Positions 4,161 through 64,000 of a stretch of 64,000 bases of DNA are shown one piece after another; position 1 is the first letter of the stretch; every line of letters starts with the position of its first letter. Origin of the DNA: an uncultured Chitinophagales bacterium (GTDB lineage: Bacteria > Bacteroidota > Ignavibacteria > UBA10030 > F1-140-MAGs086); assembly GCA_964358705.1 (NCBI GenBank), contig CAYHPL010000002.1, positions 173,017 through 237,016 of the forward strand, written 5' to 3'. The notes below the pieces were generated by a model that ran no database searches, was not told the origin of the DNA, and was given only the letters and a program-made list of their open reading frames with translations. The position numbers and the translations under genes were made by a program.

Positions 4161-4486
4161 TATCTGCTTAATAGACGAAGAGTTTTTCAATGTTTGATTG
4201 TAAAACATAATAATTAAAAAAAAATGCGGCATACTGTTATATTGCCAAGACACAAAATAAAAATATACCGCGAGTTTTCGATATATTTGCAATGCAATAA
4301 TGCGGTTTAGCGATAAAGTTTGGATACGTCTGTCGCAGAAATCGTTGCTATTGCATTCTGTAGTAGTGGCATCTGCCTTGGTAGATGCCATTGCTGTTTT
4401 AAGACAGCAAACTCTTTTGTTAATTATCTTCTCACATGTGAAGTTATGTGTAAAGAGACCTCTAAAAAAGTCACATAAAATTAAAT

Positions 4487-4530
4487 GTCATTCCCGCGAA
4501 AGCGGGAATCCATTGAAGAATAATGGATCC
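4487..4530. repeat. Palindromic fragment GTCATTCCCGCGAAAGCGGGAATCC. It is a partial copy of the hairpin-rich repeat element seen at 35613-35682 and 55905-56045.
   Basis: It is a perfect inverted repeat, CATTCCCGC-GAAA-GCGGGAATC. It is near-identical to TTGTCTTTCCCGCGAAAGCGTGAATC at 35613. Confidence 0.6.
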
Positions 4531-4582
4531 CTAATCAAGTGCGGAAGGAGAAATGGGCTTTTCAGATGTCTCGTTGAGAATA

Positions 4583-6067: not shown

Positions 6068-6479
6068 TTGCACAGTGAACTGGGATTTTTTTACTAATCT
6101 AAAAATCGTTGATAAAGTCATAAAATATATACACTGTTTTGGTTTAGAATTGAAAATAATATGATTTTTACTGCACACTAAAAATAGTGTTGATTTTAAA
6201 GTCTCAATATGTGTGCCATACTAAATATTGCGTTTTTAATCAATTTTTCAAAAAAAAAAAAAAAATAGATGTCAAAACAAATATTTATTTTTCTCAACTA
6301 TGATATATGAAATATCAAGAATGAAAATTATTTATATAAAATATGATTATTTTCTTACAGAGTTATTTCTCCGTTATTTGAATAAAAATTCAAAAGTATC
6401 ACACCTTTTTTTCCTTGTTTTTCATAATGTTATTCAATAACTTTTCCCCGCATTTTTTTTAAAATTGCTCTAAGTTTAC

Positions 6480-19201: not shown

Positions 19202-19237
19202 AACTATTTCTTTGATTTAGTGAAGTGATTTCCTACT

Positions 19238-19519
19238 CTATTGGCTTTTCGGATACGCCCCGTTTTTTTGAATGGGTTCTGTCTCCATTGATAATTTCGC
19301 AATTCTAAATTTGAATCTTCTATCATTCCAAGAAAAAGGAAATAATTTTGAAAGATTATTTTTTGTTGCTTCAATTAATAATTCCATTGATTTTTCTGTC
19401 GTATCAAAGACATCGTGCAACATAATATTCCTTCCATCAGAACTTGCAATTTGAACAATAAATTCTCTTTCGCTTTCTAAAAATTTATTTTTAGAAAATA
19501 TTTTTACTGACCACCACAT
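19238..19519 (-). CDS. Hypothetical protein
   Basis: 93-aa ORF. No motif recognised. Confidence 0.3.
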   Translation of the reverse strand: MWWSVKIFSKNKFLESEREFIVQIASSDGRNIMLHDVFDTTEKSMELLIEATKNNLSKLFPFSWNDRRFKFRIAKLSMETEPIQKNGAYPKSQ

Positions 19520-19639: not shown

Positions 19640-19900
19640 TTCCATCAAAAACTCAATACTTCAATAATCGAACAAATTATCTCAAAAATTGAATTTCGTA
19701 TTTCAAAAAACGAGATAATTATTTCTGAAATTGAACAAATTACCTCAAAAGTTAAACTACCTTTTTCAAAAATTGAACTCATTAGTTTGAAAACCGAAGT
19801 AGTTAGTTTAAAAATCAAGCAAATTAGTTCAAAATTAAACAAGTTAGTTTAAAATCAAGTAAATTAGTTTAAAATCGAACTACCTATTTCGTTTTTAAGC
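19640..19900. repeat. AT-rich degenerate ~22-bp tandem repeats
   Basis: Recurring words are caaattatctcaaaaattgaa, caaattacctcaaaagttaaa, agttagtttaaaaatcaagcaaatt, agttagtttaaaatcaagtaaattagtttaaaatcgaactacc. Confidence 0.55.
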
Positions 19901-35231: not shown

Positions 35232-35329
35232 TTGCAGTGATTATTTGCGTCAAAAATATACTTAAATAATCATTTCAATTTTAATGGAAAAAAGTAAATT
35301 TGAGACAACGAAAAAAGTCAGTAAAAAAA

Positions 35330-35405
35330 TTGTCTTTCCCGCTGACAATTCGGGAGAGGAATCTGCGATAAGAACGTAGATTTCGTGTTAAGCAAAGAAT
35401 GACAC
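35330..35405. repeat. Partial copy of the hairpin-rich repeat element. It matches 35613-35682.
   Basis: It has the same termini, TTGTCTTTCCCGC...GTGTTAAGCAAAGAATGACAC versus ...GTGTCAAGCAAGGAATGACAAT. Confidence 0.55.
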
Positions 35406-35518
35406 TACAATGCAAAGAGAAGCAGAGGCGATGTGAGATTTGTGATATGCGTTCTGCGATATGCTTTCCGGGAATTTTAGATTTTAGAAGTGAGATTTTA
35501 GATTGTTTTGTACAACTT

Positions 35519-35579
35519 CCTTTGCGTTACTCTGCGCTATCCTTTGCGTTACTCTGCGCTATCCTTTGCGGACTCTGCG
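35519..35579. repeat. 22-bp direct tandem repeat, about 2.7 copies (CCTTTGCGTTACTCTGCGCTAT)
   Basis: The copies are exact at 35519-35540 and 35541-35562, followed by a degenerate third. A related sequence occurs inverted at 56000-56045. Confidence 0.7.
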
Positions 35580-35612
35580 TTTAAGAAAGTTCGTTCTGAA
35601 CCGCACACCATA

Positions 35613-35682
35613 TTGTCTTTCCCGCGAAAGCGTGAATCTATGGTAATAACGTGGATTCCGTGTCAAGCAAGGAATGACAATG
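35613..35682. repeat. ~70-bp hairpin-rich repeat element with two inverted repeats (CCCGCGAAAGCG and ATTCCGTGTCAAGCAAGGAATGA)
   Basis: An inverted, near-identical copy lies at 55905-55975 (TTGTCATTCCGTGCTTGACACGGAATC ... ACCCGCTTGCGCGGGTAAGACAA). The flanking ~90 bp are also shared (35563-35612 versus 55976-56045). Confidence 0.7.
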
Positions 35683-35783
35683 CACCGAGAAGGCACACAA
35701 AGTATTTCGCAAAGGTACGCAAAGAGGGAAATGTCTGAATGTATGGCTTTCTCAAAAATAAAAAAGAGTGAAACATCTGTTTT

Positions 35784-35947
35784 ATACCATTTCCAAAAGT
35801 GGAAACAGGGCAAAACGTTTGGAGGATACCATTTCCAAAATTGGAAACAGGGCAAAACGTTTGGAGGATACCATTTCCAAAATTGGAAATAGGGCAAAAC
35901 GTTTGTTGGATGGCATTCCCAAAATTGGGAATAAGGCAAATAGTTCT
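35784..35947. repeat. 42-bp-period tandem array, 4 units. Each unit contains the palindrome TTTCCAAAATTGGAAA.
   Basis: The unit is ATACCATTTCCAAAATTGGAAACAGGGCAAAACGTTTGGAGG. It occurs at 35784, 35826 and 35868, with a degenerate fourth copy. There are no unique spacers. Confidence 0.85.
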
Positions 35948-35959
35948 ATTTCAGATGTC

Positions 35960-37114
35960 TCAATATGACATTGTATTTTGCACTTCCTCGACAGATATTT
36001 CTTTCATACATCGCGCATTGTACGGACAAACAAATGTTTTTGCATCGTAAATATTCATACATGGACTGCAGGAAATATTTTTATAAATCACTCTATTGCG
36101 CCCGCCAATCGGTCCGTAAAATTCCGGTGTCTCAGGTCCGAATAATGAAATCGTGCGCGTTCCCAGCGCTGAGGCAATGTGCAATGGTCCACTGTCATTT
36201 GTCAGTAGCAATGTTGCTCTGCGCAGCAATGCAAGTAATTCTCCAAACGTAAGTTTCCCTGCGACATTGAGTACGCTATTTTTGTTTATTGAAGTAACAA
36301 TGCTTTCCACATAATCAAATTCGTCGTTGCTTCCTGTAAAAAAATAGAGTGCAGTTTCATCATACGCTATTGATAGAAGTTCTGCAAATTTATCAGCATC
36401 CCAACGGCGTTCGAGAAAAGTATTTCCTGCGTTAACGTTTATACAAATGAGTGTCTTGTTTTTTATATCAATGCCAAAATGAGTTTTTATTGTGTATTCC
36501 AAAGAAATTTCATCGCTCTCCAAAATTTCCGGTGAAGAAAGTGCAATGGATGTTTTTTTCAATGTATCGCTTGTTACCTGTGAAAGAAACGCCTCTGCAA
36601 CGTGGTGAAGTTTATTGAGCGGCATCGGATGTGTAACGTGAAATTTTCTCCACTGTGTCGGAAGCGCAAATGCAAATCGTTGCGGTGCAGAAGTAAGCGC
36701 AGAAAGTAGTGTTGAAAATTTAGAAAAGAATTCAAAATCGAAAACGACATCGAATTTTTTATTTTTGCACTCGCGCAACGCAACAATTGTACCGCGGATA
36801 AAATCATCAAGTGTTGCTGTGGATATCGCTATAATAGAATCTATGAATGGCAGGCGTTTCAGTAATTCTTTTTGTGCATTGAAACTTATGAAAGTAATTG
36901 CTGCATTCGGAAAACGCTTATGGATTTCCCGCAATGCGGGAGTGAGAAGAATAATGCTTCCCATACCAAAAAATTTGATTACTAAAATTTGTTTTACATT
37001 TGCATCCGCAACAGCATATCTGCGCCTTTGAAATATCAGTCTCCAAATGCCGAGAAGCCAGCAAAGTGGAATTCCGGCGAAGCGGTCAAGAGCACGCATC
37101 AAACGCACAGTCAT
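35960..37114 (-). CDS. Glycosyltransferase family 9 (ADP-heptose:LPS heptosyltransferase-like)
   Basis: ILVIKFFGMGSIILLTPALREI, LICINVNAG and the C-terminal LLTNDSGPLHIASALGTRTISLFG are present. Confidence 0.85.
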   Translation of the reverse strand: MTVRLMRALDRFAGIPLCWLLGIWRLIFQRRRYAVADANVKQILVIKFFGMGSIILLTPALREIHKRFPNAAITFISFNAQKELLKRLPFIDSIIAISTATLDDFIRGTIVALRECKNKKFDVVFDFEFFSKFSTLLSALTSAPQRFAFALPTQWRKFHVTHPMPLNKLHHVAEAFLSQVTSDTLKKTSIALSSPEILESDEISLEYTIKTHFGIDIKNKTLICINVNAGNTFLERRWDADKFAELLSIAYDETALYFFTGSNDEFDYVESIVTSINKNSVLNVAGKLTFGELLALLRRATLLLTNDSGPLHIASALGTRTISLFGPETPEFYGPIGGRNRVIYKNISCSPCMNIYDAKTFVCPYNARCMKEISVEEVQNTMSY

Positions 37115-37905: not shown

Positions 37906-39294
37906 CTAATAATTTTGCGCAAGCAAATCCATCATCAGTCGCGATGTTTTTGATTTTGCAAATGTAGAAATTACTTTTTTAAAACTGGCTGCATTATTCT
38001 GGGATAATTTCTGAAACTCCACTTCATTAACGACATAACGATTTGCAAAAAAATAAAATCTATCGGAGAATCTTCCTGAAAAACGAAGTTGCCTGTCACT
38101 TGTTTCATCCCATGCAACATTGGTGGTAATTTTCTTTTCTACTTTTTCATAAAATGGCGTTCCTTTTATCGGATAAGCGACTGTCGTGAGAAAAATATCC
38201 GGCTGCGCAGTTGTCAGCAATTGAACTGTTGCTTCAATATCATCAAGTGTTTCGCCGGGGTAGCCAAGCATTATGAAATATCCTGCTTCTATGCCGAAAT
38301 GTTTTGCAAATCGTGTTACGCGATGAATTTCTTCGACAGTTACTCTGCGTTGCATTGCATCAAGAATTTTTTGTGAACCGCTTTCCGCGCCATACCAAAT
38401 GCGAAATGCACCGAGTTCTGCCATCTTTTGCAAAATATCTTCATTCAATCTGTCTGCGCGCGAAATACATTCAAAAGGAATTTTTATGCCGCGCTTTTTC
38501 ATTTCAGCATAAAATTCATAAAACCATTTCTGATTTATGGTGAAGACATCATCCGCAAACCAGAGCATATCCGGTTTGTACTCGTCAATGAGCAATGCAA
38601 TTTCATTCACCACATTTATTGCGGAGCGTCTTCTGTGCGTTTCACCGAATACAGAACGACTGCACCACGTACACGTGTACGGACATCCGCGCGCGCAAAT
38701 AAGTGAAACAGAACCCATTCCATGATGAGTTTTCCACGTTTGCACATAGCGAGGTACATCAATTGCCGCACGGTCGGGAAACGGAAGTGAATCTAAATTT
38801 TGAATTAACGGACGCGAAGGAGTATGAATATATTTTCCATCTTCGTCGCGAAATACAATGCCATTTATTGATTGCAACTGATGTACGCCCGATTGTTGTA
38901 TTGCAGGAAGAAGTTCTGCAATTGTTTCTTCTCCTTCTCCGATAACTGCTACATCTGCGCCGATGTTCAGATAATTATCTGCATACTTTGGCACATCAGG
39001 ACCTCCGACAATAATTTTACAATTGAATTTTTTACAAAAGCGAATTTGCTCTACCACATTGAACTTCGTCATTAAATTTGAATAAATTCCAACAAAGGAA
39101 GGACGCTCTGTTTCAATGAAAGTGCAAAATTCTTTTTTGGAAGAAAAAGTTGAGTCGAAGATTGATACGGAAAAACCTTTTGATTTCAGATACGCTGAAA
39201 TGTAGAGAATGCCCAGTGTCGGATAGGGTTTCATCACACGCCGTTCCGCTTCATCTTCAAAAAGAAAGTAACCGTGTGTAAGAAGTATATCCAA
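37906..39294 (-). CDS. B12-binding domain radical SAM protein
   Basis: The N-terminal cobalamin-binding Rossmann region reads LGILYISAYLKSKGFSV...IVGGPDV...VAVIGEGEET. The radical SAM cluster motif is ICARGCPYTCTWCS. Confidence 0.85.
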   Translation of the reverse strand: MDILLTHGYFLFEDEAERRVMKPYPTLGILYISAYLKSKGFSVSIFDSTFSSKKEFCTFIETERPSFVGIYSNLMTKFNVVEQIRFCKKFNCKIIVGGPDVPKYADNYLNIGADVAVIGEGEETIAELLPAIQQSGVHQLQSINGIVFRDEDGKYIHTPSRPLIQNLDSLPFPDRAAIDVPRYVQTWKTHHGMGSVSLICARGCPYTCTWCSRSVFGETHRRRSAINVVNEIALLIDEYKPDMLWFADDVFTINQKWFYEFYAEMKKRGIKIPFECISRADRLNEDILQKMAELGAFRIWYGAESGSQKILDAMQRRVTVEEIHRVTRFAKHFGIEAGYFIMLGYPGETLDDIEATVQLLTTAQPDIFLTTVAYPIKGTPFYEKVEKKITTNVAWDETSDRQLRFSGRFSDRFYFFANRYVVNEVEFQKLSQNNAASFKKVISTFAKSKTSRLMMDLLAQNY

Positions 39295-41777: not shown

Positions 41778-42012
41778 GGGAATTTGTGTAGTAAGTTTTC
41801 AGTGTAATATTTTTTTGTGGACAAAAATACGGAGAAGGAGAGGAAAATAAAAAATGTAAAGGAATTTGTCATACCGAATTCGCCGAATTGAATGAAGAAT
41901 CTTTTCTGATGCCATATTTTTTACAGTAAAAGTATTACTCATAAAATTTTTGGCTTACAAAATAATATTAGTATCTTTTTCCCGCATTTTGTAACACTTA
42001 TATAAAAACTGT

Positions 42013-42249
42013 ATGCAAACATCTACAATGACGGTGAAAGGACAAATCCTTGTTCCCTCAAAAATCCGCAAACAAAAAGGAATGAAAAAAGGAACAGTAA
42101 TTATCTTCATCGAAAAGGGCGATGATGTAATTATCCGTCCTTTGACGAAAGATTACTTTGAGCGGTACGCGGGTATATTTAACGACAAGGAGAGTGAACT
42201 GGAAATTTTACTGGAAGAGCGGAAGAAAGATAAAGCCAAAGGAAAATAA
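42013..42249 (+). CDS. vapB: AbrB/SpoVT-domain antitoxin (VapB/MazE-like)
   Basis: MTVKGQILVPSKIRKQKGMKKGTVI is a swapped-hairpin domain. It lies 5 nt upstream of the PIN toxin gene. Confidence 0.7.
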   Translation: MQTSTMTVKGQILVPSKIRKQKGMKKGTVIIFIEKGDDVIIRPLTKDYFERYAGIFNDKESELEILLEERKKDKAKGK

Positions 42250-42254
42250 CCCGA

Positions 42255-42656
42255 ATGAAAAAATACGTTCTTGATAGTTATGCGCTGATTGTGTATTTCC
42301 GCAAACAAAAAGGATGGGAAATTGTCCGCGATTTGCTCTTTGAAGCATTTCAATCCGACCAAAAAATGTTTCTTACTTCGATTAACTGGGGGGAAGTATA
42401 TTACACACGCTTACAAACCGGCGATGAAGAGAAAGCGGAAGAAGCAGTCCGCGCAATAAAAAATATGCCCATTGACGTGGTTGAAGAAATTGATACGCGT
42501 CTTACAAAACAGGCAGGAAAATATAAAGCGCTCGGCGGAATTGCCTACGCAGATTGCTTCGCCGCCGCTCTCGCCAAAAAAGAAAACGCAATACTCGTTA
42601 CGGGCGATAAAGAGCTTGCACAATTGGAAAAAGAAATTAAAATTTTGTGGATTTAG
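42255..42656 (+). CDS. vapC: PIN-domain ribonuclease toxin (VapC)
   Basis: YVLDSYALIVYF..INWGEVYY..GIAYADCFAAALAKKENAILVTGDKEL carries the PIN acidic residues. Confidence 0.8.
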   Translation: MKKYVLDSYALIVYFRKQKGWEIVRDLLFEAFQSDQKMFLTSINWGEVYYTRLQTGDEEKAEEAVRAIKNMPIDVVEEIDTRLTKQAGKYKALGGIAYADCFAAALAKKENAILVTGDKELAQLEKEIKILWI

Positions 42657-42773
42657 AAAGGGAAAATTAAAATGAACATAGAAAAATTATTTCAAGCAGT
42701 GAAAGACGAACCAATGGAGCACACTCTCATAATAGCGGTTAGCGAATTAAAGCGGCAAGGTTTTAAGTAACTG

Positions 42774-43550
42774 TTAATATTTTTTTTCAAATATTTCTCT
42801 TGAATGATAATCGAGAAATTCTTTTCCTGGTAAAAACTTCTCAGGTAATATTATTTTGATGTTGTCATATTTTTCGAACATTGTTTCTATCGCTTTGTCA
42901 TTTTTTGTTTTGTAAATATTTTTGGAAACTTTTGTTTTAAATTCTGAGGTAATTGTGATTAAGCCACTATCAAATGCTTTGTCGTGAAGATAATTTAAAC
43001 ATAAACCATTAGAAGGATTCAACCTATTTTTTTCGTCAACCGACCAAGGAATGATATGGCTTGCAACAAGTAATTCTGAAATTGTCAAACCTGTAATACA
43101 GCATTTATTATTGTAAGATGAGAGAACAACCCTTCTGAAAAAATTTTGATTTATTCTTGATTTTATTATGGTTTCTCTTTCTTTTCCAATCGGAATATCC
43201 GCAGTATTTATTTCTGAAATATTTTCTAACGGTTGATTAGAAAGCTTTGCGATTAGTAATTCACTTTCATAGGCAAGATTATTCCAATCATTATTAAATT
43301 CATTCCATACGATTTCATCTAATTTACTAGTGTTTCCTAAACCTACAATTCCTCTCTTCTTTAATTCTGGGTCGAAACTTCCAAAGTTTCCAATTTTCAT
43401 TTTTACAGAATTTGGAGTTCTTCCAATAATTTTTGAAATCCGAATTATATCTGGATGGTTTGAACTTACTCTGTTGAATGGAATTTTGCAGTAAAGATTT
43501 AATGCAATAATAGTTTGTTCTCTTGTCCAAATAGTGTTTTCTCTTTTCAT
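42774..43550 (-). CDS. HNH endonuclease (HNH_2 / COG3183-like putative restriction endonuclease)
   Basis: The C-terminal segment CCITGL...ASHIIPWS...NGLCLNYLHDKAFDSGLITI is HNH-type. No adjacent methyltransferase gene was seen. Confidence 0.6.
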   Translation of the reverse strand: MKRENTIWTREQTIIALNLYCKIPFNRVSSNHPDIIRISKIIGRTPNSVKMKIGNFGSFDPELKKRGIVGLGNTSKLDEIVWNEFNNDWNNLAYESELLIAKLSNQPLENISEINTADIPIGKERETIIKSRINQNFFRRVVLSSYNNKCCITGLTISELLVASHIIPWSVDEKNRLNPSNGLCLNYLHDKAFDSGLITITSEFKTKVSKNIYKTKNDKAIETMFEKYDNIKIILPEKFLPGKEFLDYHSREIFEKKY

Positions 43551-43559
43551 AAGTTTACT

Positions 43560-43855
43560 GAATTAATTTTATCAAGTTCAATATTACGTTCATTATTTTT
43601 CTTCCACCACATTGTTCTTGTTATGGGAATTATAGCATATTTACAATTTTCATGTCAAAAACAACTATGAACAAAAATAACTGTTTTATATTTCGGTAAA
43701 ACTATGTCTGGCTTTCCCGGAAGTTTTTTATCATGGAGTTTGTAACGATAACCATTAGCAAAAAGAAATTTTCGTACAATCATTTCGGGTTTAGTGTCTT
43801 TGCTTCTGACCCGACTCAAATTGTAACTTCTTGTTTTCTTATCGTGAATATTCAT
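43560..43855 (-). pseudogene. vsr: Very-short-patch repair endonuclease (vsr) remnant. It is truncated by a stop after ~66 codons, with degenerate downstream homology.
   Basis: RSYNLSRVRSKDTKPEMIVRKFLFANGYRYKLHDKKLPGKPDIVLPKYKTVIFVHSCF matches the Vsr N-terminal half and then hits a stop. Downstream frames still show WWKKNNERNIELDKIN-like remnants. Confidence 0.55.
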
Positions 43856-43940
43856 TACGTTTTACAAATCTTCTATCATTCTCGCCACTTTTTCCCTACT
43901 CATCACGCAATCGCCCACCGAAATTTTTCTCTAACGATGT

Positions 43941-44159
43941 TCATTGTAGTTTCATAAACTCTTCTACCGTTAAACCAGCATCACGAATTATTTGACGTAG
44001 TGTCCCGCGTGCTATTTCTTTATGATTGGGAATAGTGAGGGGTTTTCGAGTTGTGTACCGGAGATGAATATGGCTGCCTTCCTGGTCCCGAAAGTAATAA
44101 CCAATTCGCTGCAATATTTTGAAAATTTCTTTTCCAGAAAGCACCGGAAGTTTACTCAT
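43941..44159 (-). CDS. hicA: HicA-family mRNA interferase toxin
   Basis: MSKLPVLSGKEIFKILQRIGYYFRDQEGSHIHL is the YcfA/HicA signature. Confidence 0.8.
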   Translation of the reverse strand: MSKLPVLSGKEIFKILQRIGYYFRDQEGSHIHLRYTTRKPLTIPNHKEIARGTLRQIIRDAGLTVEEFMKLQ

Positions 44160-44377
44160 ACAGCAACCGAAACAAGCAATTCTTTTTTTCCGTTTTCAGA
44201 ATGAAGCGGGATACCATCTTCCGAAAGAGAGCGCAAATGCAAGTGAATTGCTTCCTTCATATTTTTCACTGCTTGCTTTTCAGTTTTCCCTTGCGAAATG
44301 CATCCGGGAAGCGACGGGCATGTTGCAACATACCAATTATCTTCATCTTGTTCGAGAATTATTTTAAAGTTGAGCAT
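44156..44377 (-). CDS. hicB: HicB-family antitoxin
   Basis: FKIILEQDEDNWYVATCPSLPGCISQGKTEKQAVKNMKEAIHLHL is the UPF0150/HicB fold. It overlaps hicA by 4 nt. The start is moved to MLNFKIIL to avoid overlapping hemY. Confidence 0.75.
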   Translation of the reverse strand: MLNFKIILEQDEDNWYVATCPSLPGCISQGKTEKQAVKNMKEAIHLHLRSLSEDGIPLHSENGKKELLVSVAV

Positions 44378-44423
44378 AAAAATTTGTGTTGAGTTTCTGT
44401 TGAAAAATATATTGAATTGAAAA

Positions 44424-45830
44424 CTATATATCAATTTTAACTGATTCGTCTATTCTCCTCGCCACACTTTCTCCGCTCATCACGCAATCACCAACAGAAA
44501 TTCCGCCACGAAAATTTGCACAGAGGAATGTTCCGCGAAAATTTTTTTCAAACTTATCCATTTCCTGTTCAATTTTGTAATAGCCGAGTTCATATTGCGG
44601 AATTGCTTTTTGCCAGCGATTGATTTGCACGAAATACGGCTCTCCTTCAATGCGCATTATTGATTGCAATTCTTCCAGTACTGTTTTCTGTAATTGCGCA
44701 TCATCTAAATTACAAATTTCCGGTTGACGCGAACCGCCTGCAAAAGTAGTCAGTGCAATACTATCATCCGGCGCGCGATTGGGAAACAGTGAAGATGACC
44801 AGATTGTGCCGAGTATTTTTCGTTGCTCTTTTTCAGGAATTAAAAACCCAAATCCGTCAAGTGCTCTTTTCATTTGCGATTTTTTAAATCCGAAAAATAT
44901 TTCTGCGACAGGCGGATAGTAAATATTGCTCAATGTAATTGCCATATTCGGGTCAATCTGTGCAATAATTTTTGCGAGCGCGTATGCTGGAATTGCAAAG
45001 AGAACATTGTGCGATTGCAATGTTTCTGCGCTTCCATTTTGCGTAAAAGAAACAGTGAACATACATTTATTTCCATCGCGCATCGGAATAACATGCTCCA
45101 CTGTTGCATTAAAGTGAATATCGTCTCCAAGAAATTTTGCAATCGCTTTCGGAAACGTTTGCATGCCGTTTTTAAAAGAAAACATTTTCGCAGATTCTTT
45201 GCTCTGTTCTCCGCTCCGGGCTTTTCTCTTCCGTTCTTTTTTTCCGCGAATAACTCCTTTAAAAATTCCACCGTATTTTTCTTCCAATGCAAATAATTTC
45301 GGAAACGCAGAACGCACGCTTAATTTTTTCGGGTCGCCTGCAAATACTCCTGCGACAAACGGGTTGATAAAATAATCGAGAAATTCTTTGCCTAATCTTC
45401 GCTCAACAAATTGCGCAATAGATTCTTCGTGCATTGCTCTTCCCTGGAATAATTCACCTGCAACACGAAACTTTCCTTTCCAGCTGAGTAATTTTGTTTT
45501 TAAAAATGCGGGCGGACTCATTGGCATTTCCTCGAGTTGTCCGTTTTTTAAAATGTATCGCTTGTTCGATGATGCGCTTGCGTAAAGCATTTCATCTGCG
45601 ATGCCGAGTTCGTTGACCATTTGTTTGAAAAGAGGAGTTGTTTCGAGTGCGCTGTTCGGTCCGCTTTCAATCATAAATCCATCAATGACTGCTGTTTTCA
45701 TTGTTCCGCCGACATCCGCGTCTGCTTCGAGAATTGTAACATTCCAGCCGCTTTTTTTGAGAAAATATGCAGCAGTCAATCCTGAAATTCCTGCGCCGAT
45801 AATAATAATGTGCTTGTTATTGTTCATCAA
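44424..45830 (-). CDS. hemY: Protoporphyrinogen oxidase, FAD-dependent (HemY/PgoX)
   Basis: An N-terminal FAD fold IIIIGAGISGLTAAYFLKKSGWNVTILEADADVGG is present. It is ~468 aa and sits in the heme gene context. Confidence 0.8.
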   Translation of the reverse strand: MMNNNKHIIIIGAGISGLTAAYFLKKSGWNVTILEADADVGGTMKTAVIDGFMIESGPNSALETTPLFKQMVNELGIADEMLYASASSNKRYILKNGQLEEMPMSPPAFLKTKLLSWKGKFRVAGELFQGRAMHEESIAQFVERRLGKEFLDYFINPFVAGVFAGDPKKLSVRSAFPKLFALEEKYGGIFKGVIRGKKERKRKARSGEQSKESAKMFSFKNGMQTFPKAIAKFLGDDIHFNATVEHVIPMRDGNKCMFTVSFTQNGSAETLQSHNVLFAIPAYALAKIIAQIDPNMAITLSNIYYPPVAEIFFGFKKSQMKRALDGFGFLIPEKEQRKILGTIWSSSLFPNRAPDDSIALTTFAGGSRQPEICNLDDAQLQKTVLEELQSIMRIEGEPYFVQINRWQKAIPQYELGYYKIEQEMDKFEKNFRGTFLCANFRGGISVGDCVMSGESVARRIDESVKIDI

Positions 45831-55491: not shown

Positions 55492-55689
55492 TGCATAAGT
55501 TCAAATTTCGGGCGAAAATATACGAAGACGAGAAGTATAAACAGAAAATTCATTGTAAATTCTCAATATTGAAAAATAAAATAAGACATACCTGGCTTAT
55601 TTTGAGAATCGCAGTGCAATTTTAGCAAAATCTCCGTTTTCGTATGTATTCCCTCACTCATTAAATCAATAATTGTGCCAAAAAAAAAA

Positions 55690-55716
55690 GAGCATTTCGT
55701 AATTGGAAATGCTCTG
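55690..55716 (-). terminator. Rho-independent terminator (minus strand) ahead of the hem operon promoter
   Basis: On the minus strand AGAGCATTTCcaattacGAAATGCTCT forms a 10-bp stem followed by T9. Confidence 0.6.
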
Positions 55717-55756
55717 TAAATGGGAAACTCCGAAATTTTACTAAAAAAGGCATTTT

Positions 55757-55867
55757 GCCTATTGTAACTTTTTGCAATGCCACCGTGAACGTTCATTGCC
55801 CCATTGCAACTTTTTGCAATGGCACTGTGAACGTTCATTGCCCTATTGTAACTTTTTGCAATGGTAT
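55757..55867. repeat. 41-42-bp-period tandem array, ~2.7 units. Each unit contains the palindrome ATTGCAA-N4-TTGCAAT. It is related to the 35784-35947 array but in opposite orientation.
   Basis: The unit TGCCC(C/T)ATTG(C/T)AACTTTTTGCAATGGCAC(C/T)GTGAACGTTCAT starts at 55757, 55797 and 55838. Its reverse complement is GCCATTGCAAAAAGTTACAATAGGGCA.. , which aligns with ACCATTTCCAAAATTGGAAACAGGGCA.. of the first array. Confidence 0.8.
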
Positions 55868-55904
55868 AAACCAGACTTTTTACTCTTTGTTCATTTTTGT
55901 GGTT

Positions 55905-56045
55905 TATTGTCATTCCGTGCTTGACACGGAATCTATTTTCTTTCAATGGATACCCGCTTGCGCGGGTAAGACAATATGGTGTGCGGTTCATAACAATCTT
56001 TCTTAAACGCAAAGTCCGCAAAGGGAAGAGCAGAGTTACGCAAAG
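55905..56045. repeat. Inverted copy of the ~150-bp hairpin-rich repeat element (compare 35519-35682)
   Basis: GTCATTCCGTGCTTGACACGGAATC, ACCCGCTTGCGCGGGTAAGACAATATGGTGTGCGGTTCA and AAAGTCCGCAAAGG..CAGAGTTACGCAAAG are reverse complements of the 35519-35682 sequences. Confidence 0.7.
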
Positions 56046-56058
56046 AGTTTCTAAAGAT

Positions 56059-56709
56059 TCATTTCTCTTTTGTAATAATTTTTGGAACGATATGACAGTC
56101 AGTAAGTTTCCATTCATAGTCATCCATAATAGTTCCTCCAGTTTTTGTATGAAGGTTTACGATGCCGATGATTGGCACAATAGAATAAGTTGTTCTTCCG
56201 CGTGTATCAATTCCATAATTTCTATCTTCAACTATAAAACTTTGAGTATAATTACCATAAGGAACAGATACTTCGGTTTTACTCAATACCCGAATTGTAT
56301 CATATCCATATCCGGAAATTGATGGATTGAGCCAATAATTTCCTACAGTAAATGGGAGAATTAACAATAAATTCCGCGTAGAGTTTTCGAGTGTCGCATA
56401 GCGATAAAGTGTATCATTACAATTCGCAATGAACCAAAAATCTTTATCACCATCAATACTCCATTTGTATAATTTAGTTCCATCGAGATGACGGAGGGTA
56501 TCTGTAATAATAATGGTCATTTTGCGATGAGTATGTGCATAGTTATCAGTTACAGAGTATGTCCATGATGTACCGATGGTATTCGGGAAATATTCGTTGA
56601 TTGTTGTATGATTTTGATGTTGTGGGGCAGGTTCATCAATGATTGGTATTTCTTCTTTACACGAAGAAATAATAATGATTGCAAGGAGTAGTATATAAGT
56701 ATTTTTCAT
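56059..56709 (-). CDS. Hypothetical lipoprotein
   Basis: Lipoprotein signal MKNTYILLLAIIIISSC. No recognised domain. Confidence 0.45.
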   Translation of the reverse strand: MKNTYILLLAIIIISSCKEEIPIIDEPAPQHQNHTTINEYFPNTIGTSWTYSVTDNYAHTHRKMTIIITDTLRHLDGTKLYKWSIDGDKDFWFIANCNDTLYRYATLENSTRNLLLILPFTVGNYWLNPSISGYGYDTIRVLSKTEVSVPYGNYTQSFIVEDRNYGIDTRGRTTYSIVPIIGIVNLHTKTGGTIMDDYEWKLTDCHIVPKIITKEK

Positions 56710-56845
56710 AATTATTTCCTTAAAAAATTCGAGTGTAATAAACAAAATTATTCCAGTTTTTCCAACACATCCATTTCTCTTTCCAACTTCTTCACCGTCG
56801 CTTTGTGAAACACAGCAGAAGCAAGTGCGCGCGGCGAACTTCTTC

Positions 56846-62567: not shown

Positions 62568-64000
62568 TCAGTTGTTGTTTCTCAAGTGGTACTGTTCATT
62601 TTCAAACACATCCATTTCTCTCTCTAACTTCTTCACAGTCGCTTTGTGAAACACTGCCGAAGCAAGTGCGCGTGGCGAATGTTTATTCCATTTTGTCGGA
62701 GAAGAAAACAGTTCTAATCCCTTCCATATACGAAATCGTTTGTGAATAAGTTTGTGCAATGCGCGATAAAAATCCGGCGGATATGTTCCTTCGTACATCA
62801 TTGCCAAATCCTGACTATCGAACCAATTTTGTTTTTCACCTAACTGCGCTTTTACATTTTCATAAAATTTTGTTCCAGGCAGCGGATATGAAACTGAAAC
62901 GCCGATTTCATCAGGCAAACAATCCTTCACCATTTGAAATGTTTTTTCAATGTCTTCTTTCGTTTCTCCTGTGTAACCGAATTGCAGAAAAAATCCTACG
63001 CGGATATTATTCTCTTTCAGTTTGCGTGACGATTCATAAATTTGCTCAACAGTTGTTCCTTTCTCCATCGCATCAAGAATTTTTTGCGAACCCGATTCTG
63101 CTCCCATCCATGTCGAAGTACATCCTGCGCGTGCCAGTGCGGGAATTGTATCACCTTTCACTAATAAATCCGCCCGCGAAAGACATTTAAACGGAATACG
63201 CGCATTCTGCCTCTGCACGTCATCTGCAAATTGCTGAATCCATCCCGGTTTCAATCCGAAAATATCATCGCAAAACCATAAATGGTCAGGTGCAAATGTT
63301 TCTTTCAGCCAGCGCATTTCTTTTGCTACATTTTCCGGTGAGCGTGTATTATATACTTGTCCGTAAATTGGTTTCGCACACCAGTTGCAATGAAACGGAC
63401 AGCCGCGCGTTGTTACAATATTCATTGAAAAAAATCCGTGCCGTTCTTTCCATACTTGACGATATTGTTCCACATCCACAATATCCCACGCGGGAAATGG
63501 GAGTTCATCAAGTTGATGGAGTACATCGCGTGGCGGTGTGCGGAGAATATTTACGTTTTCCTGTAATGCTAATCCGTGTATCAAAGAAATATTCTTTTCT
63601 GAATTTCCACTATATAATTCGAGCAATTCAAATAGTGTTTGTTCGCCTTCGCCAATTACAACAACGTCTGCGCCGTGTTCAAAATATTTTGAGAAATGGT
63701 CTGCCGCATCCGAACTGTGCATTATTACTTTGCATCCGAATTGTTTGCCGATTGCACACATCCGAAATGCAGCGATGCGCATTCTTTCCAAACACATTTT
63801 TGTGAGGTAATTGAAATCATCATCATAGATGACGAGAAATTTTGGTTGGTGAAGTTGGAGATGCGAGAGAAGTTCTTCTTCAGAAGTGGCAAGCATTGCA
63901 TCAAACAATGCAACGGAATAATTTTTCGTGCGGAGAAAACTTGCAGCGTACAATGTGCCAAGCGGTGCGTATGGCATCATCGAGCGAAATTCTTTTTCAT
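62568..64000 (-). CDS. B12-binding domain radical SAM protein, a paralog of 37906..39294. The 5' end may extend past the window edge.
   Basis: LGTLYAASFLRTKNYSVALFD..VVVIGEGEQT is the B12-binding region and VTTRGCPFHCNWCAK the radical SAM cluster. The reading frame stays open upstream of MMPYAPLG to the window end. Confidence 0.8.
   Translation of the reverse strand, partial: EKEFRSMMPYAPLGTLYAASFLRTKNYSVALFDAMLATSEEELLSHLQLHQPKFLVIYDDDFNYLTKMCLERMRIAAFRMCAIGKQFGCKVIMHSSDAADHFSKYFEHGADVVVIGEGEQTLFELLELYSGNSEKNISLIHGLALQENVNILRTPPRDVLHQLDELPFPAWDIVDVEQYRQVWKERHGFFSMNIVTTRGCPFHCNWCAKPIYGQVYNTRSPENVAKEMRWLKETFAPDHLWFCDDIFGLKPGWIQQFADDVQRQNARIPFKCLSRADLLVKGDTIPALARAGCTSTWMGAESGSQKILDAMEKGTTVEQIYESSRKLKENNIRVGFFLQFGYTGETKEDIEKTFQMVKDCLPDEIGVSVSYPLPGTKFYENVKAQLGEKQNWFDSQDLAMMYEGTYPPDFYRALHKLIHKRFRIWKGLELFSSPTKWNKHSPRALASAVFHKATVKKLEREMDVFENEQYHLRNNN

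Follow-up and report, generated by a model that had tools for sequence, protein, structure and literature searches.

What is an array of palindromic repeats doing upstream of a heme-biosynthesis operon, and does it belong to the control region of that operon? The array lies in an uncultured Ignavibacteria bacterium from Hainich groundwater metagenomes, within a stretch of 64,000 nucleotides that we analyzed as a whole (the window). It occupies the spacer that separates hemX from an orphan lipoprotein gene with its stop at 56059 (locus 2), and downstream of it are genes for CcsA-like HemX, HemA, HemC and HemD, then HemE and HemF. A related composite (locus 1) lies between a family-9 glycosyltransferase gene (stop 35960) and the gene for a 2017-aa fibronectin-III protein. 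Since the genes flanking both composites are all on the minus strand, the orientation of the composite relative to transcription is opposite at the two loci. An earlier, sequence-only reading of this DNA had offered either co-evolving operator and regulator pairs or a structured RNA repeat as the explanation.

Locus 2, made up of 42-bp units in tandem (55742-55867) and a hairpin segment of 145 nt (55901-56045), is inverted and colinear with respect to the composite at 35542-35951. A repeat search returned the 145-nt segment as an inverted repeat with arms at 35542-35686 and 55901-56045 and a complementarity of 85%. When locus 1 (plus strand) was aligned to locus 2 (minus strand), the two were colinear over the CTTTGCG motif, the linker and hairpin doublet, the leader AAAGAGTnAAAnnTCTGnTTTATACCATT and the array. 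Tandem Repeats Finder placed the locus-2 array at 55758-55864 (period 42, 2.5 copies, 90% matches) and the locus-1 array at 35784-35940 (period 42, 3.7 copies). These three analyses bear out the proposal that the locus-1 composite has a second, inverted and diverged copy at locus 2, equal in period but with other palindrome cores, and the window contains only these two copies. The array of three tandem units with a period of about 42 bp was likewise recovered, except that the third unit is truncated. The features of both composites are collected in Table 1. At locus 1, the doublet is preceded by a 22-bp tandem repeat (TCCTTTGCGTTACTCTGCGCTA, x2.9, 35518-35579) and followed by inverted CGCAAAGGTACGCAAAG (35698-35724), which places this doublet at the tip of a longer imperfect hairpin; low-complexity inverted flanks of this kind were also seen in contigs L156, L160 and L164.

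Table 1 Features of the two composites, their minimal relative and the terminator upstream of hemX
Feature	Position	Strand	Description
Intrinsic terminator	55679..55715	-	Hairpin 55715-55689 with a 10-bp stem and 7-nt loop, then T10
Locus-2 array	55742..55867	-	Units u2a 55826-55867, u2b 55784-55825 and u2c 55742-55783 (terminal, truncated)
Small hairpin AGGCAAAATGCCT, then TTTTTT	55748..55760	-	At the array end
Leader AACAAAGAGTAAAAAGTCTGGTTTAT	55868..55900	-	Between hairpin doublet and array; kept in locus 1 and in the sister species
Hairpin doublet	55907..55975	-	Two inverted hairpins, closed by the outer stem TTGTC...GACAA
Hairpin 2, GATTCCGTGTCAAGCACGGAATGACAA	55908-55933	-	Second hairpin of the doublet
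Hairpin 1	55946-55973	-	Fits the published SRM consensus
Left part of 145-nt segment	55976..56045	-	Motif CTTTGCGTAACTCTGC / CTTTGCGGACTTTGCG and conserved linker GAACCGCACACCATATTGTC; common to locus 1
Locus-1 composite, whole	35303..35961	+	Opposite orientation to locus 2
Locus-1 left terminal-repeat-like GAGACAACGAAAAAAGTC		+
Locus-1 degenerate doublet	35329-35408	+
Locus-1 22-bp repeats	35518-35579	+
Locus-1 doublet	35612-35683	+	Followed by the leader
Locus-1 42-bp array	35784-35951	+
Locus-1 right terminus TTTCAGATGTCTC	35949-35961	+
Minimal relative, 118 bp	4455..4572	+	13-bp terminal inverted repeats (11/13 matching) around the NTS-core hairpin; no array

Within the hairpin segment, two hairpins of the GTCATTCC...GGAATC type, the type of the NTS/SRM (dRS3-like) family, stand in inverted orientation. 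The Neisseria Transformation Sequence (NTS), CGTCATTCCCGCGMAVGCGGGAATCYRG, extends dRS3 and was described in 2025 together with a degenerate Ssn-related motif (SRM); hairpins of both kinds are cut as single-stranded DNA, and not as RNA or duplex, by Ssn GIY-YIG nucleases, and Neisseria SsnA binds and cleaves the hairpin as single-stranded DNA without interacting with its RNA form (PMC11893778). We scanned the window by regular expression with the SRM consensus HGTCWYN(0-2)YYVSBRHN(0-5)WNVSBRGN(0-2)RNCYNB and found two matches, 55946-55973(-) and 4486-4513(+), against 0.15 expected (shuffle mean). The hairpin at 4487 has the exact NTS core GTCATTCCCGCGAAAGCGGGAATC, and hairpin 2 (55908-55933) falls one position short of the SRM expression. 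Since hairpin 1 fits the published consensus, the ~150-bp hairpin element belongs to a known family and takes the form of a REPIN-like doublet. The double-hairpin module occurs in four copies in the window. The 118-bp relative is MITE-like and sits between two T9SS BNR/sortilin genes. Its 13-mer TTTCAGATGTCTC also ends the locus-1 array at 35949-35961, and locus 1 starts with GAGAC...AAAAAAGTC, which resembles the terminal 13-mer of the element. No terminal repeat was recognized at locus 2, and no target-site duplications were seen at any window copy, including around both composites.

The family extends well beyond this organism. A degenerate form of the hairpin 2 pattern was found in at least 120 metagenome contigs, nearly all of them with the exact GATTCCGTGTCAAGCACGGAATGACA and with unrelated flanks; MITE-like elements often enclose it. 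Flanks and partners were counted in 80 contigs listed among these matches: hairpin 2 lay outside long ORFs in 75 of the 80, with no clear orientation bias relative to genes, and a forward partner hairpin, GTCAT(T/A)CC-stem-GG(A/T)ATC, stood upstream in 39 of the 80, mostly 14-22 nt away. The stems of these 39 partner hairpins differ widely in sequence and together contain 309 Watson-Crick pairs, 0 G.T and 1 A.C. RNAalifold applied to 20 doublets gave both-side changes at seven of the eight pairs of hairpin 1 and supported an inter-hairpin stem and an outer GTC/GAC stem, both of which covary. Searches of viral contigs with the hairpin pattern and of plasmids with the doublet returned no match.

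Some of the metagenomic sub-families carry terminal inverted repeats and duplicated flanks, as MITEs do. One, of ~125 bp, combines the terminal repeats CTCGTAAAAAGTC / GACTTTTTACGAG and a hairpin doublet with flanking direct repeats of ~8-13 bp (contigs L112, L122, L125, L131, L135, L159, L172-L174, L177 and L188); a second (L143, L146, L148, L151, L154 and L179) has the ends TAGTGTCTC...GACACTA. The 13-mer AAACAGGGCAAAA is common to the 42-bp array unit and a metagenomic MITE sub-family, in which it has the matching position (shuffle p <0.01), and the leader shares GTAAAAAGTC, a terminal-repeat motif of such a sub-family, at the corresponding position (shuffle p ~0.03). Tandem arrays also occur directly 3' of the hairpin 2 sequence in other metagenome contigs, among them L166, in which a 42-bp palindromic array and a TTTCCAAAAATGGAAA palindrome follow it. 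This is suggestive of arrays that arise by tandem amplification of the hairpin-plus-linker segment of MITE-like elements.

Each 42-bp unit contains an 18-bp palindrome of the ATTGCAA-AAAG-TTGCAAT type and a second, short palindrome centered on AACGTT, TGAACGTTCA. The motif ATTGCAA-N4-TTGCAAT, which had been assigned to every locus-2 unit, is perfect in the middle unit, but the outer two read ATTGTAA-N4-TTGCAAT with one G.T on the plus strand. With up to 3 mismatches, the unit pattern CCATTNNNAAAANNNNNAANAGGGCAA matched seven times in the window against 0.17 expected, exclusively in the two arrays. We aligned the palindromes of these seven units and later added the unit of the sister species described below. 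The 8-pair helix is paired in 84-86% of cells, compared with 73% in shuffles and at most 45% when the partner was slid. Pair 9-20 appears as T-A, G-C or C-G, and pair 11-18 as C-G or A-T. Palindrome symmetry is thus preserved between copies by compensatory substitutions, a pattern the sequence-only reading had proposed to test for, and these affect two pairs and three palindrome types in few independent events (about 3). The units form weak folds as single-stranded DNA (-3.5 to -10.5 kcal/mol, z -1.1 to -3.0), and the doublet folds with -17.9 kcal/mol (z = -5.5). With its flanks, the palindrome reads (A/G)(C/G)C-ATT...AAT-(A/G)GG in one direction and CC(C/T)-ATT...AAT-GG in the other. GTC is missing on the 5' side and C directly on the 3' side, and neither strand matches the SRM expression. 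Lacking NTS flanks, the 42-bp units are not NTS/SRM members. We also compared G.T with A.C mismatches between strands of the array, which rested on ~2 independent events and was not significant, and we discarded a per-unit sigma-70-like promoter, TTCACA-N17-TACAAT, which is not conserved in the locus-1 units. Matches of the unit pattern elsewhere were single and were taken as chance: 85 scattered ones in 185,579 species genomes, none of them composite-like, and 16 in viral contigs.

The number of units changes between relatives and between assemblies: it is 1 at the locus-2 site of the sister species, 2.5 and 3.7 in the window, and ~9.7 at locus 1 in a noisy long-read contig of the same species (L238, 9559-9944), where the window has 3.7. 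Short-read contigs stop inside the locus-1 array. Taken together, the short-read breaks and the ~9.7 units suggest that the locus-1 copy number is either polymorphic or collapsed in the window, whose copy numbers may have been reduced by assembly. In practice, such arrays break or collapse short-read assemblies. A second long-read contig of the same species (L239, 10720-12444) follows the window from 64000 to 59866, where the two part within the gene for a 1397-aa T9SS protein; this reflects either a variable surface-protein gene or a chimeric contig end.

The history of the locus could be followed in a sister species with 88-95% amino-acid identity in HemX, HemA and HemC and an identity of 0.52-0.55 at four-fold degenerate sites. 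There, a radical-SAM gene lies directly upstream of hemX, and in the 405-nt spacer the GGGAATTTTAGA motif, which also occurs at locus 1, is followed by what remains of the doublet (37 nt), then by the leader, a single unit (CCATTGCCAAAAATGGAAATTG) and the terminator hairpin. The presence of these parts in the sister spacer indicates that the composite is older than the species split. The sister unit, in which pair 9-20 is G-A and pair 11-18 is C-G, is an intermediate of the two window types. The sister species has exactly two units fewer than the window species, and its doublet has decayed. In more distant relatives, at 66-70% HemX identity, a radical-SAM/SPASM gene lies ~220 bp upstream of hemX and the composite is absent. 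Identity between the window and the sister species amounts to 0.74 in the terminal unit, 0.79 in the promoter region and 0.82 in the terminator, and that of the leader falls within 0.74-0.82. Since these values exceed the benchmark of 0.52-0.55 from four-fold degenerate sites, some local constraint is possible, and conservation of the terminal unit, leader and terminator could reflect a local function.

The strong minus-strand terminator proposed earlier between the array and hemX is real and has the 10-bp stem described, with a T-run of 10 rather than nine. Its hairpin is kept in the sister species, where the T-run is interrupted. Because the hairpin follows the upstream radical-SAM gene in that species, it is most simply the terminator of that gene. 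Judged from sequence, the window terminator would most simply be this ancestral one taken over by the lipoprotein gene, whose 3' untranslated region would then contain the repeat. That the array is transcribed on the minus strand, as had been suggested, is plausible. As the radical-SAM gene of the sister species borders directly on the hemX spacer, the window lineage appears to have acquired a T9SS block and the orphan lipoprotein gene (56059-56709) by insertion. In the window, an 81-nt direct repeat (91% identical, 56758-56838 and 62599-62679; L234 5457-5523) brackets a 448-aa gene and the 1397-aa T9SS gene, and is a copy of the 3' end of the B12/radical-SAM gene. Each composite also has a B12-binding radical-SAM gene upstream, at a distance of 1.9 kb (37906-39294) and 6.5 kb (62568-63980); the two genes are paralogs, and segments of them share ~72% nucleotide identity.

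The conserved upstream region of hemX ends exactly at the terminator and leaves the composite outside. Directly after the terminator stands a sigma-54-like element, TGGCAC-N5-TTGAT (55665-55680 on the minus strand, TGGCAC at 55675-55680), which is conserved upstream of hemX in five Ignavibacteria relatives (including L106, L108, L110 and L234). With 10 matches vs 6.2 expected, the window shows no enrichment of the TGGCAC-type pattern. A second conserved box, CTTCGTATATTTT, lies ~35 nt before the hemX start codon. A box resembling the conserved hemX box, TGGCACACATATTGAG, occurs at 6203-6218, just upstream of a T9SS gene start.

We next consider the coding status of the spacer. Public gene calls include a 184-aa ORF (P0001; L001 1555-2109, window 55563-56123 on the minus strand) that crosses the whole locus-2 repeat and overlaps the lipoprotein gene. 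A homologue search of 5.8 billion proteins returned nothing for it beyond the query, and a protein-database search with the lipoprotein likewise returned the query alone. Open frames over the composite lie on different element strands at locus 1 and locus 2, and the sister species has no gene call at this place; a coding reading was rejected on these grounds. The discordant frames and the missing homologue of the 184-aa ORF indicate that the composite is non-coding, and the ORF itself is probably spurious. Among the larger window ORFs scanned with Pfam, we found no regulator, transposase, GIY-YIG nuclease or Y1_Tnp (RAYT) gene, and no convincing small GIY-YIG protein emerged when the window and the 80 metagenome loci were screened with a regular-expression motif.

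Taken together, the family membership of hairpin 1, the compensatory changes, the variable unit number and the absence or decay of the composite in relatives point to a mosaic, intergenic, non-coding repeat of the BIME/NIME/MITE kind, whose hairpins would act as folded single-stranded DNA and which lies outside the heme control region; we give this reading a probability of about 0.55. Its core would be a doublet of inverted GTCATTCC-stem-GGAATC hairpins (NTS/SRM or dRS3-like), joined to a leader and to an AT-rich 42-bp hairpin unit. Slippage or unequal recombination may have amplified the unit in tandem, with copy number shifting over time. The hairpins are probably recognized, as folded single-stranded DNA, by a hairpin-specific nuclease or transposase encoded elsewhere (Ssn-type GIY-YIG or similar), whose recognition requirement would keep the palindromes self-complementary while their sequence drifts. 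At locus 2, the repeat would be part of the 3' untranslated region that precedes the terminator of the upstream gene. If this is correct, the NTS/SRM family, recently tied to site-specific single-stranded-DNA nucleases in Neisseria, reaches uncultured Ignavibacteria and many environmental contigs, and composite repeats can be seeded by its hairpins, with tandem amplification of a single hairpin unit that evolves by compensatory change. We infer that the repeat has no regulatory role: nothing links it to heme-gene control, and it should not be taken for a regulator of the heme operon.

The hairpin family and the concept of a mosaic repeat are known (PMC11893778, PMC1797815, PMC3116915); the combination of an inverted doublet with a homogeneous 42-bp array in Ignavibacteria is new. 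As in the NTS/SRM-Ssn system (PMC11893778), hairpin 1 and the 4486 hairpin fit the SRM consensus and have the conserved asymmetric flanks (GTCAT 5', ATC 3'), the stems are variable and perfectly paired, and the repeats cluster in intergenic DNA beside surface-protein genes. Here, however, the host is an Ignavibacteria MAG rather than Neisseria, Wolbachia or a sphingomonad, no ssnA (GIY-YIG, cd10448) was seen in the window, and the hairpins form inverted doublets joined to an array whose units lack NTS flanks. NIMEs, which are built of dRS3 and RS elements (PMC1797815), are likewise mosaics of intergenic ATTCCC-N8-GGGAAT-type inverted repeats and other modules that vary in copy number between genomes and lie near surface-protein genes, but their spacers are heterogeneous RS elements of 50-150 bp, whereas the two composites known here have a homogeneous 42-bp unit arranged head to tail. 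The pair of inverted hairpins with a short spacer is the REPIN architecture of REP/BIME and REPIN-RAYT systems (PMC3116915, PMC3337134), and BIME-2-like tandem amplification, an intergenic or 3'-UTR location and occurrence in either orientation are common to both as well. Unlike REP elements, the hairpins have the flank GTCA(T) rather than GTAG and stems that are perfect palindromes where those of REP are typically imperfect, and no RAYT (Y1 transposase) gene was found among the window ORFs scanned. What the locus has in common with BIME- and NIME-type mosaics is the clustering of intergenic hairpins with other modules and a unit number that takes the values 1, 2.5, 3.7 and ~9.7.

The position of the composite, with a stop codon (56059) on one side and a strong terminator on the other, would suit a structured RNA: array and hairpins in the 3' untranslated region of the upstream gene might stabilize its mRNA, pause or terminate transcription, or yield a small RNA. 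REP elements do stabilize upstream mRNA, both strands of the composite fold far better than shuffles (z -6.1 and -6.9), and the four palindrome mismatches outside the loop-proximal pair 13-16 (in u1a, u1b, u2a and u2c) would all be G.U on a single element strand. That strand, however, is antisense to the genes at locus 2, and the composite is inverted with respect to transcription at locus 1 relative to locus 2. The region did not reach the gathering score of any Rfam 15 family (best FtrB, 25.9 bits where 66 are required), the hairpin has no clear preference for one orientation toward genes in the 80 listed metagenome loci, and the doublet has decayed in the sister species. In addition, the adjacent hairpins belong to a family that is nearly free of G.U pairs and whose nuclease SsnA acts on single-stranded DNA, not RNA (PMC11893778). 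The structured RNA repeat of the sequence-only reading is therefore unlikely.

We consider it similarly improbable that the locus is a neutral remnant, that is, a segmental duplication of an old repeat-rich spacer that drifts and slips with no hairpin-dependent activity today. Reduction of the sister-species doublet to 37 nt, a palindrome mismatch in two of the three locus-2 units, the weak folding of single units and the restriction of composites to two in the window, with no copies in 185,579 species genomes, all speak for such a remnant. Against it stand compensatory changes on both arms at two pairs and in three palindrome types, a terminal unit and leader more conserved than four-fold degenerate sites, and a widespread hairpin family with heavily covarying stems.

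A bolder extension of the single-stranded-DNA reading is more doubtful still. In it, the 42-bp units would be new AT-rich single-stranded-DNA hairpin targets of an Ssn-like nuclease or hairpin-specific recombinase, kept self-complementary by selection and amplified in tandem, with NTS-type doublets marking recombination or transformation boundaries around the 20-kb heme block and the T9SS surface-protein genes. To our knowledge, no such hairpin-target or boundary system has been described in this phylum. The two inverted composites bracket a block of heme genes of ~20 kb.

Less likely than these AT-rich hairpin targets, and very improbable overall, are phased palindromes that serve as operator or enhancer sites for a dimeric DNA-binding protein, for instance an activator at the sigma-54-like hemX element. 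In favor of this, 18-bp palindromes recur every 42 bp (four helical turns), which puts the sites in helical phase, and their centers lie ~90, 130 and 175 bp upstream of TGGCAC (55675-55680), a motif conserved in five relatives. The AACGTT palindrome has no loop and so is better suited to double-stranded recognition than to a hairpin, and the unit is conserved above the neutral level. Yet distant relatives keep the TGGCAC motif in place without the array, the locus-1 array faces the 3' end of a gene, the -12 element is GA and not the near-invariant GC, and TGGCAC-type matches occur at 10 vs 6.2 expected, which is not an enrichment. Half-sites that differ between copies and species by compensatory changes would destroy binding by a fixed protein; changes on both arms are what a nucleic-acid hairpin predicts, and they could restore a protein site only if the protein changed to match. 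In addition, Pfam scans of window ORFs gave no gene for a regulator or enhancer-binding protein, and the composite is outside the conserved hemX upstream region. All this speaks against the co-evolving operator and regulator pairs proposed earlier.

The remaining candidates can be set aside briefly: a CRISPR array would have unique spacers, and here the whole 42-bp unit is repeated head to tail at 90-92% identity, while integron attC, iteron and sopC-like readings fail for want of integrase or partition genes and because the site has decayed in the sister species. The sopC site of the F plasmid consists of twelve 43-bp repeats, each with a 7-bp inverted repeat. The period of ~42-43 bp and the 7-bp inverted repeat per unit are shared with it, but the arrays studied here are chromosomal, have no parA/parB nearby, differ in their palindromes and are attached to a dispersed hairpin repeat.

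Two further regions of the window are worth recording. Between hemB and the protoporphyrinogen oxidase gene lies an island (41800-44430) with a VapBC-like pair (42013-42656) and an HNH endonuclease (42774-43550), in which PIN and HNH were assigned by Pfam and the antitoxin by reading its translation, and with a putative truncated Vsr-like ORF (43655-43855) and a putative HicAB-like pair (43941-44434), both from translations read by eye. Lastly, about a dozen units of 20-21 bp (AAAAATCGAAC.AATTAGTTT), some with a 14-bp palindrome, occupy 19640-19900 in the spacer adjoining a DUF805 RNA motif (19226-19293).
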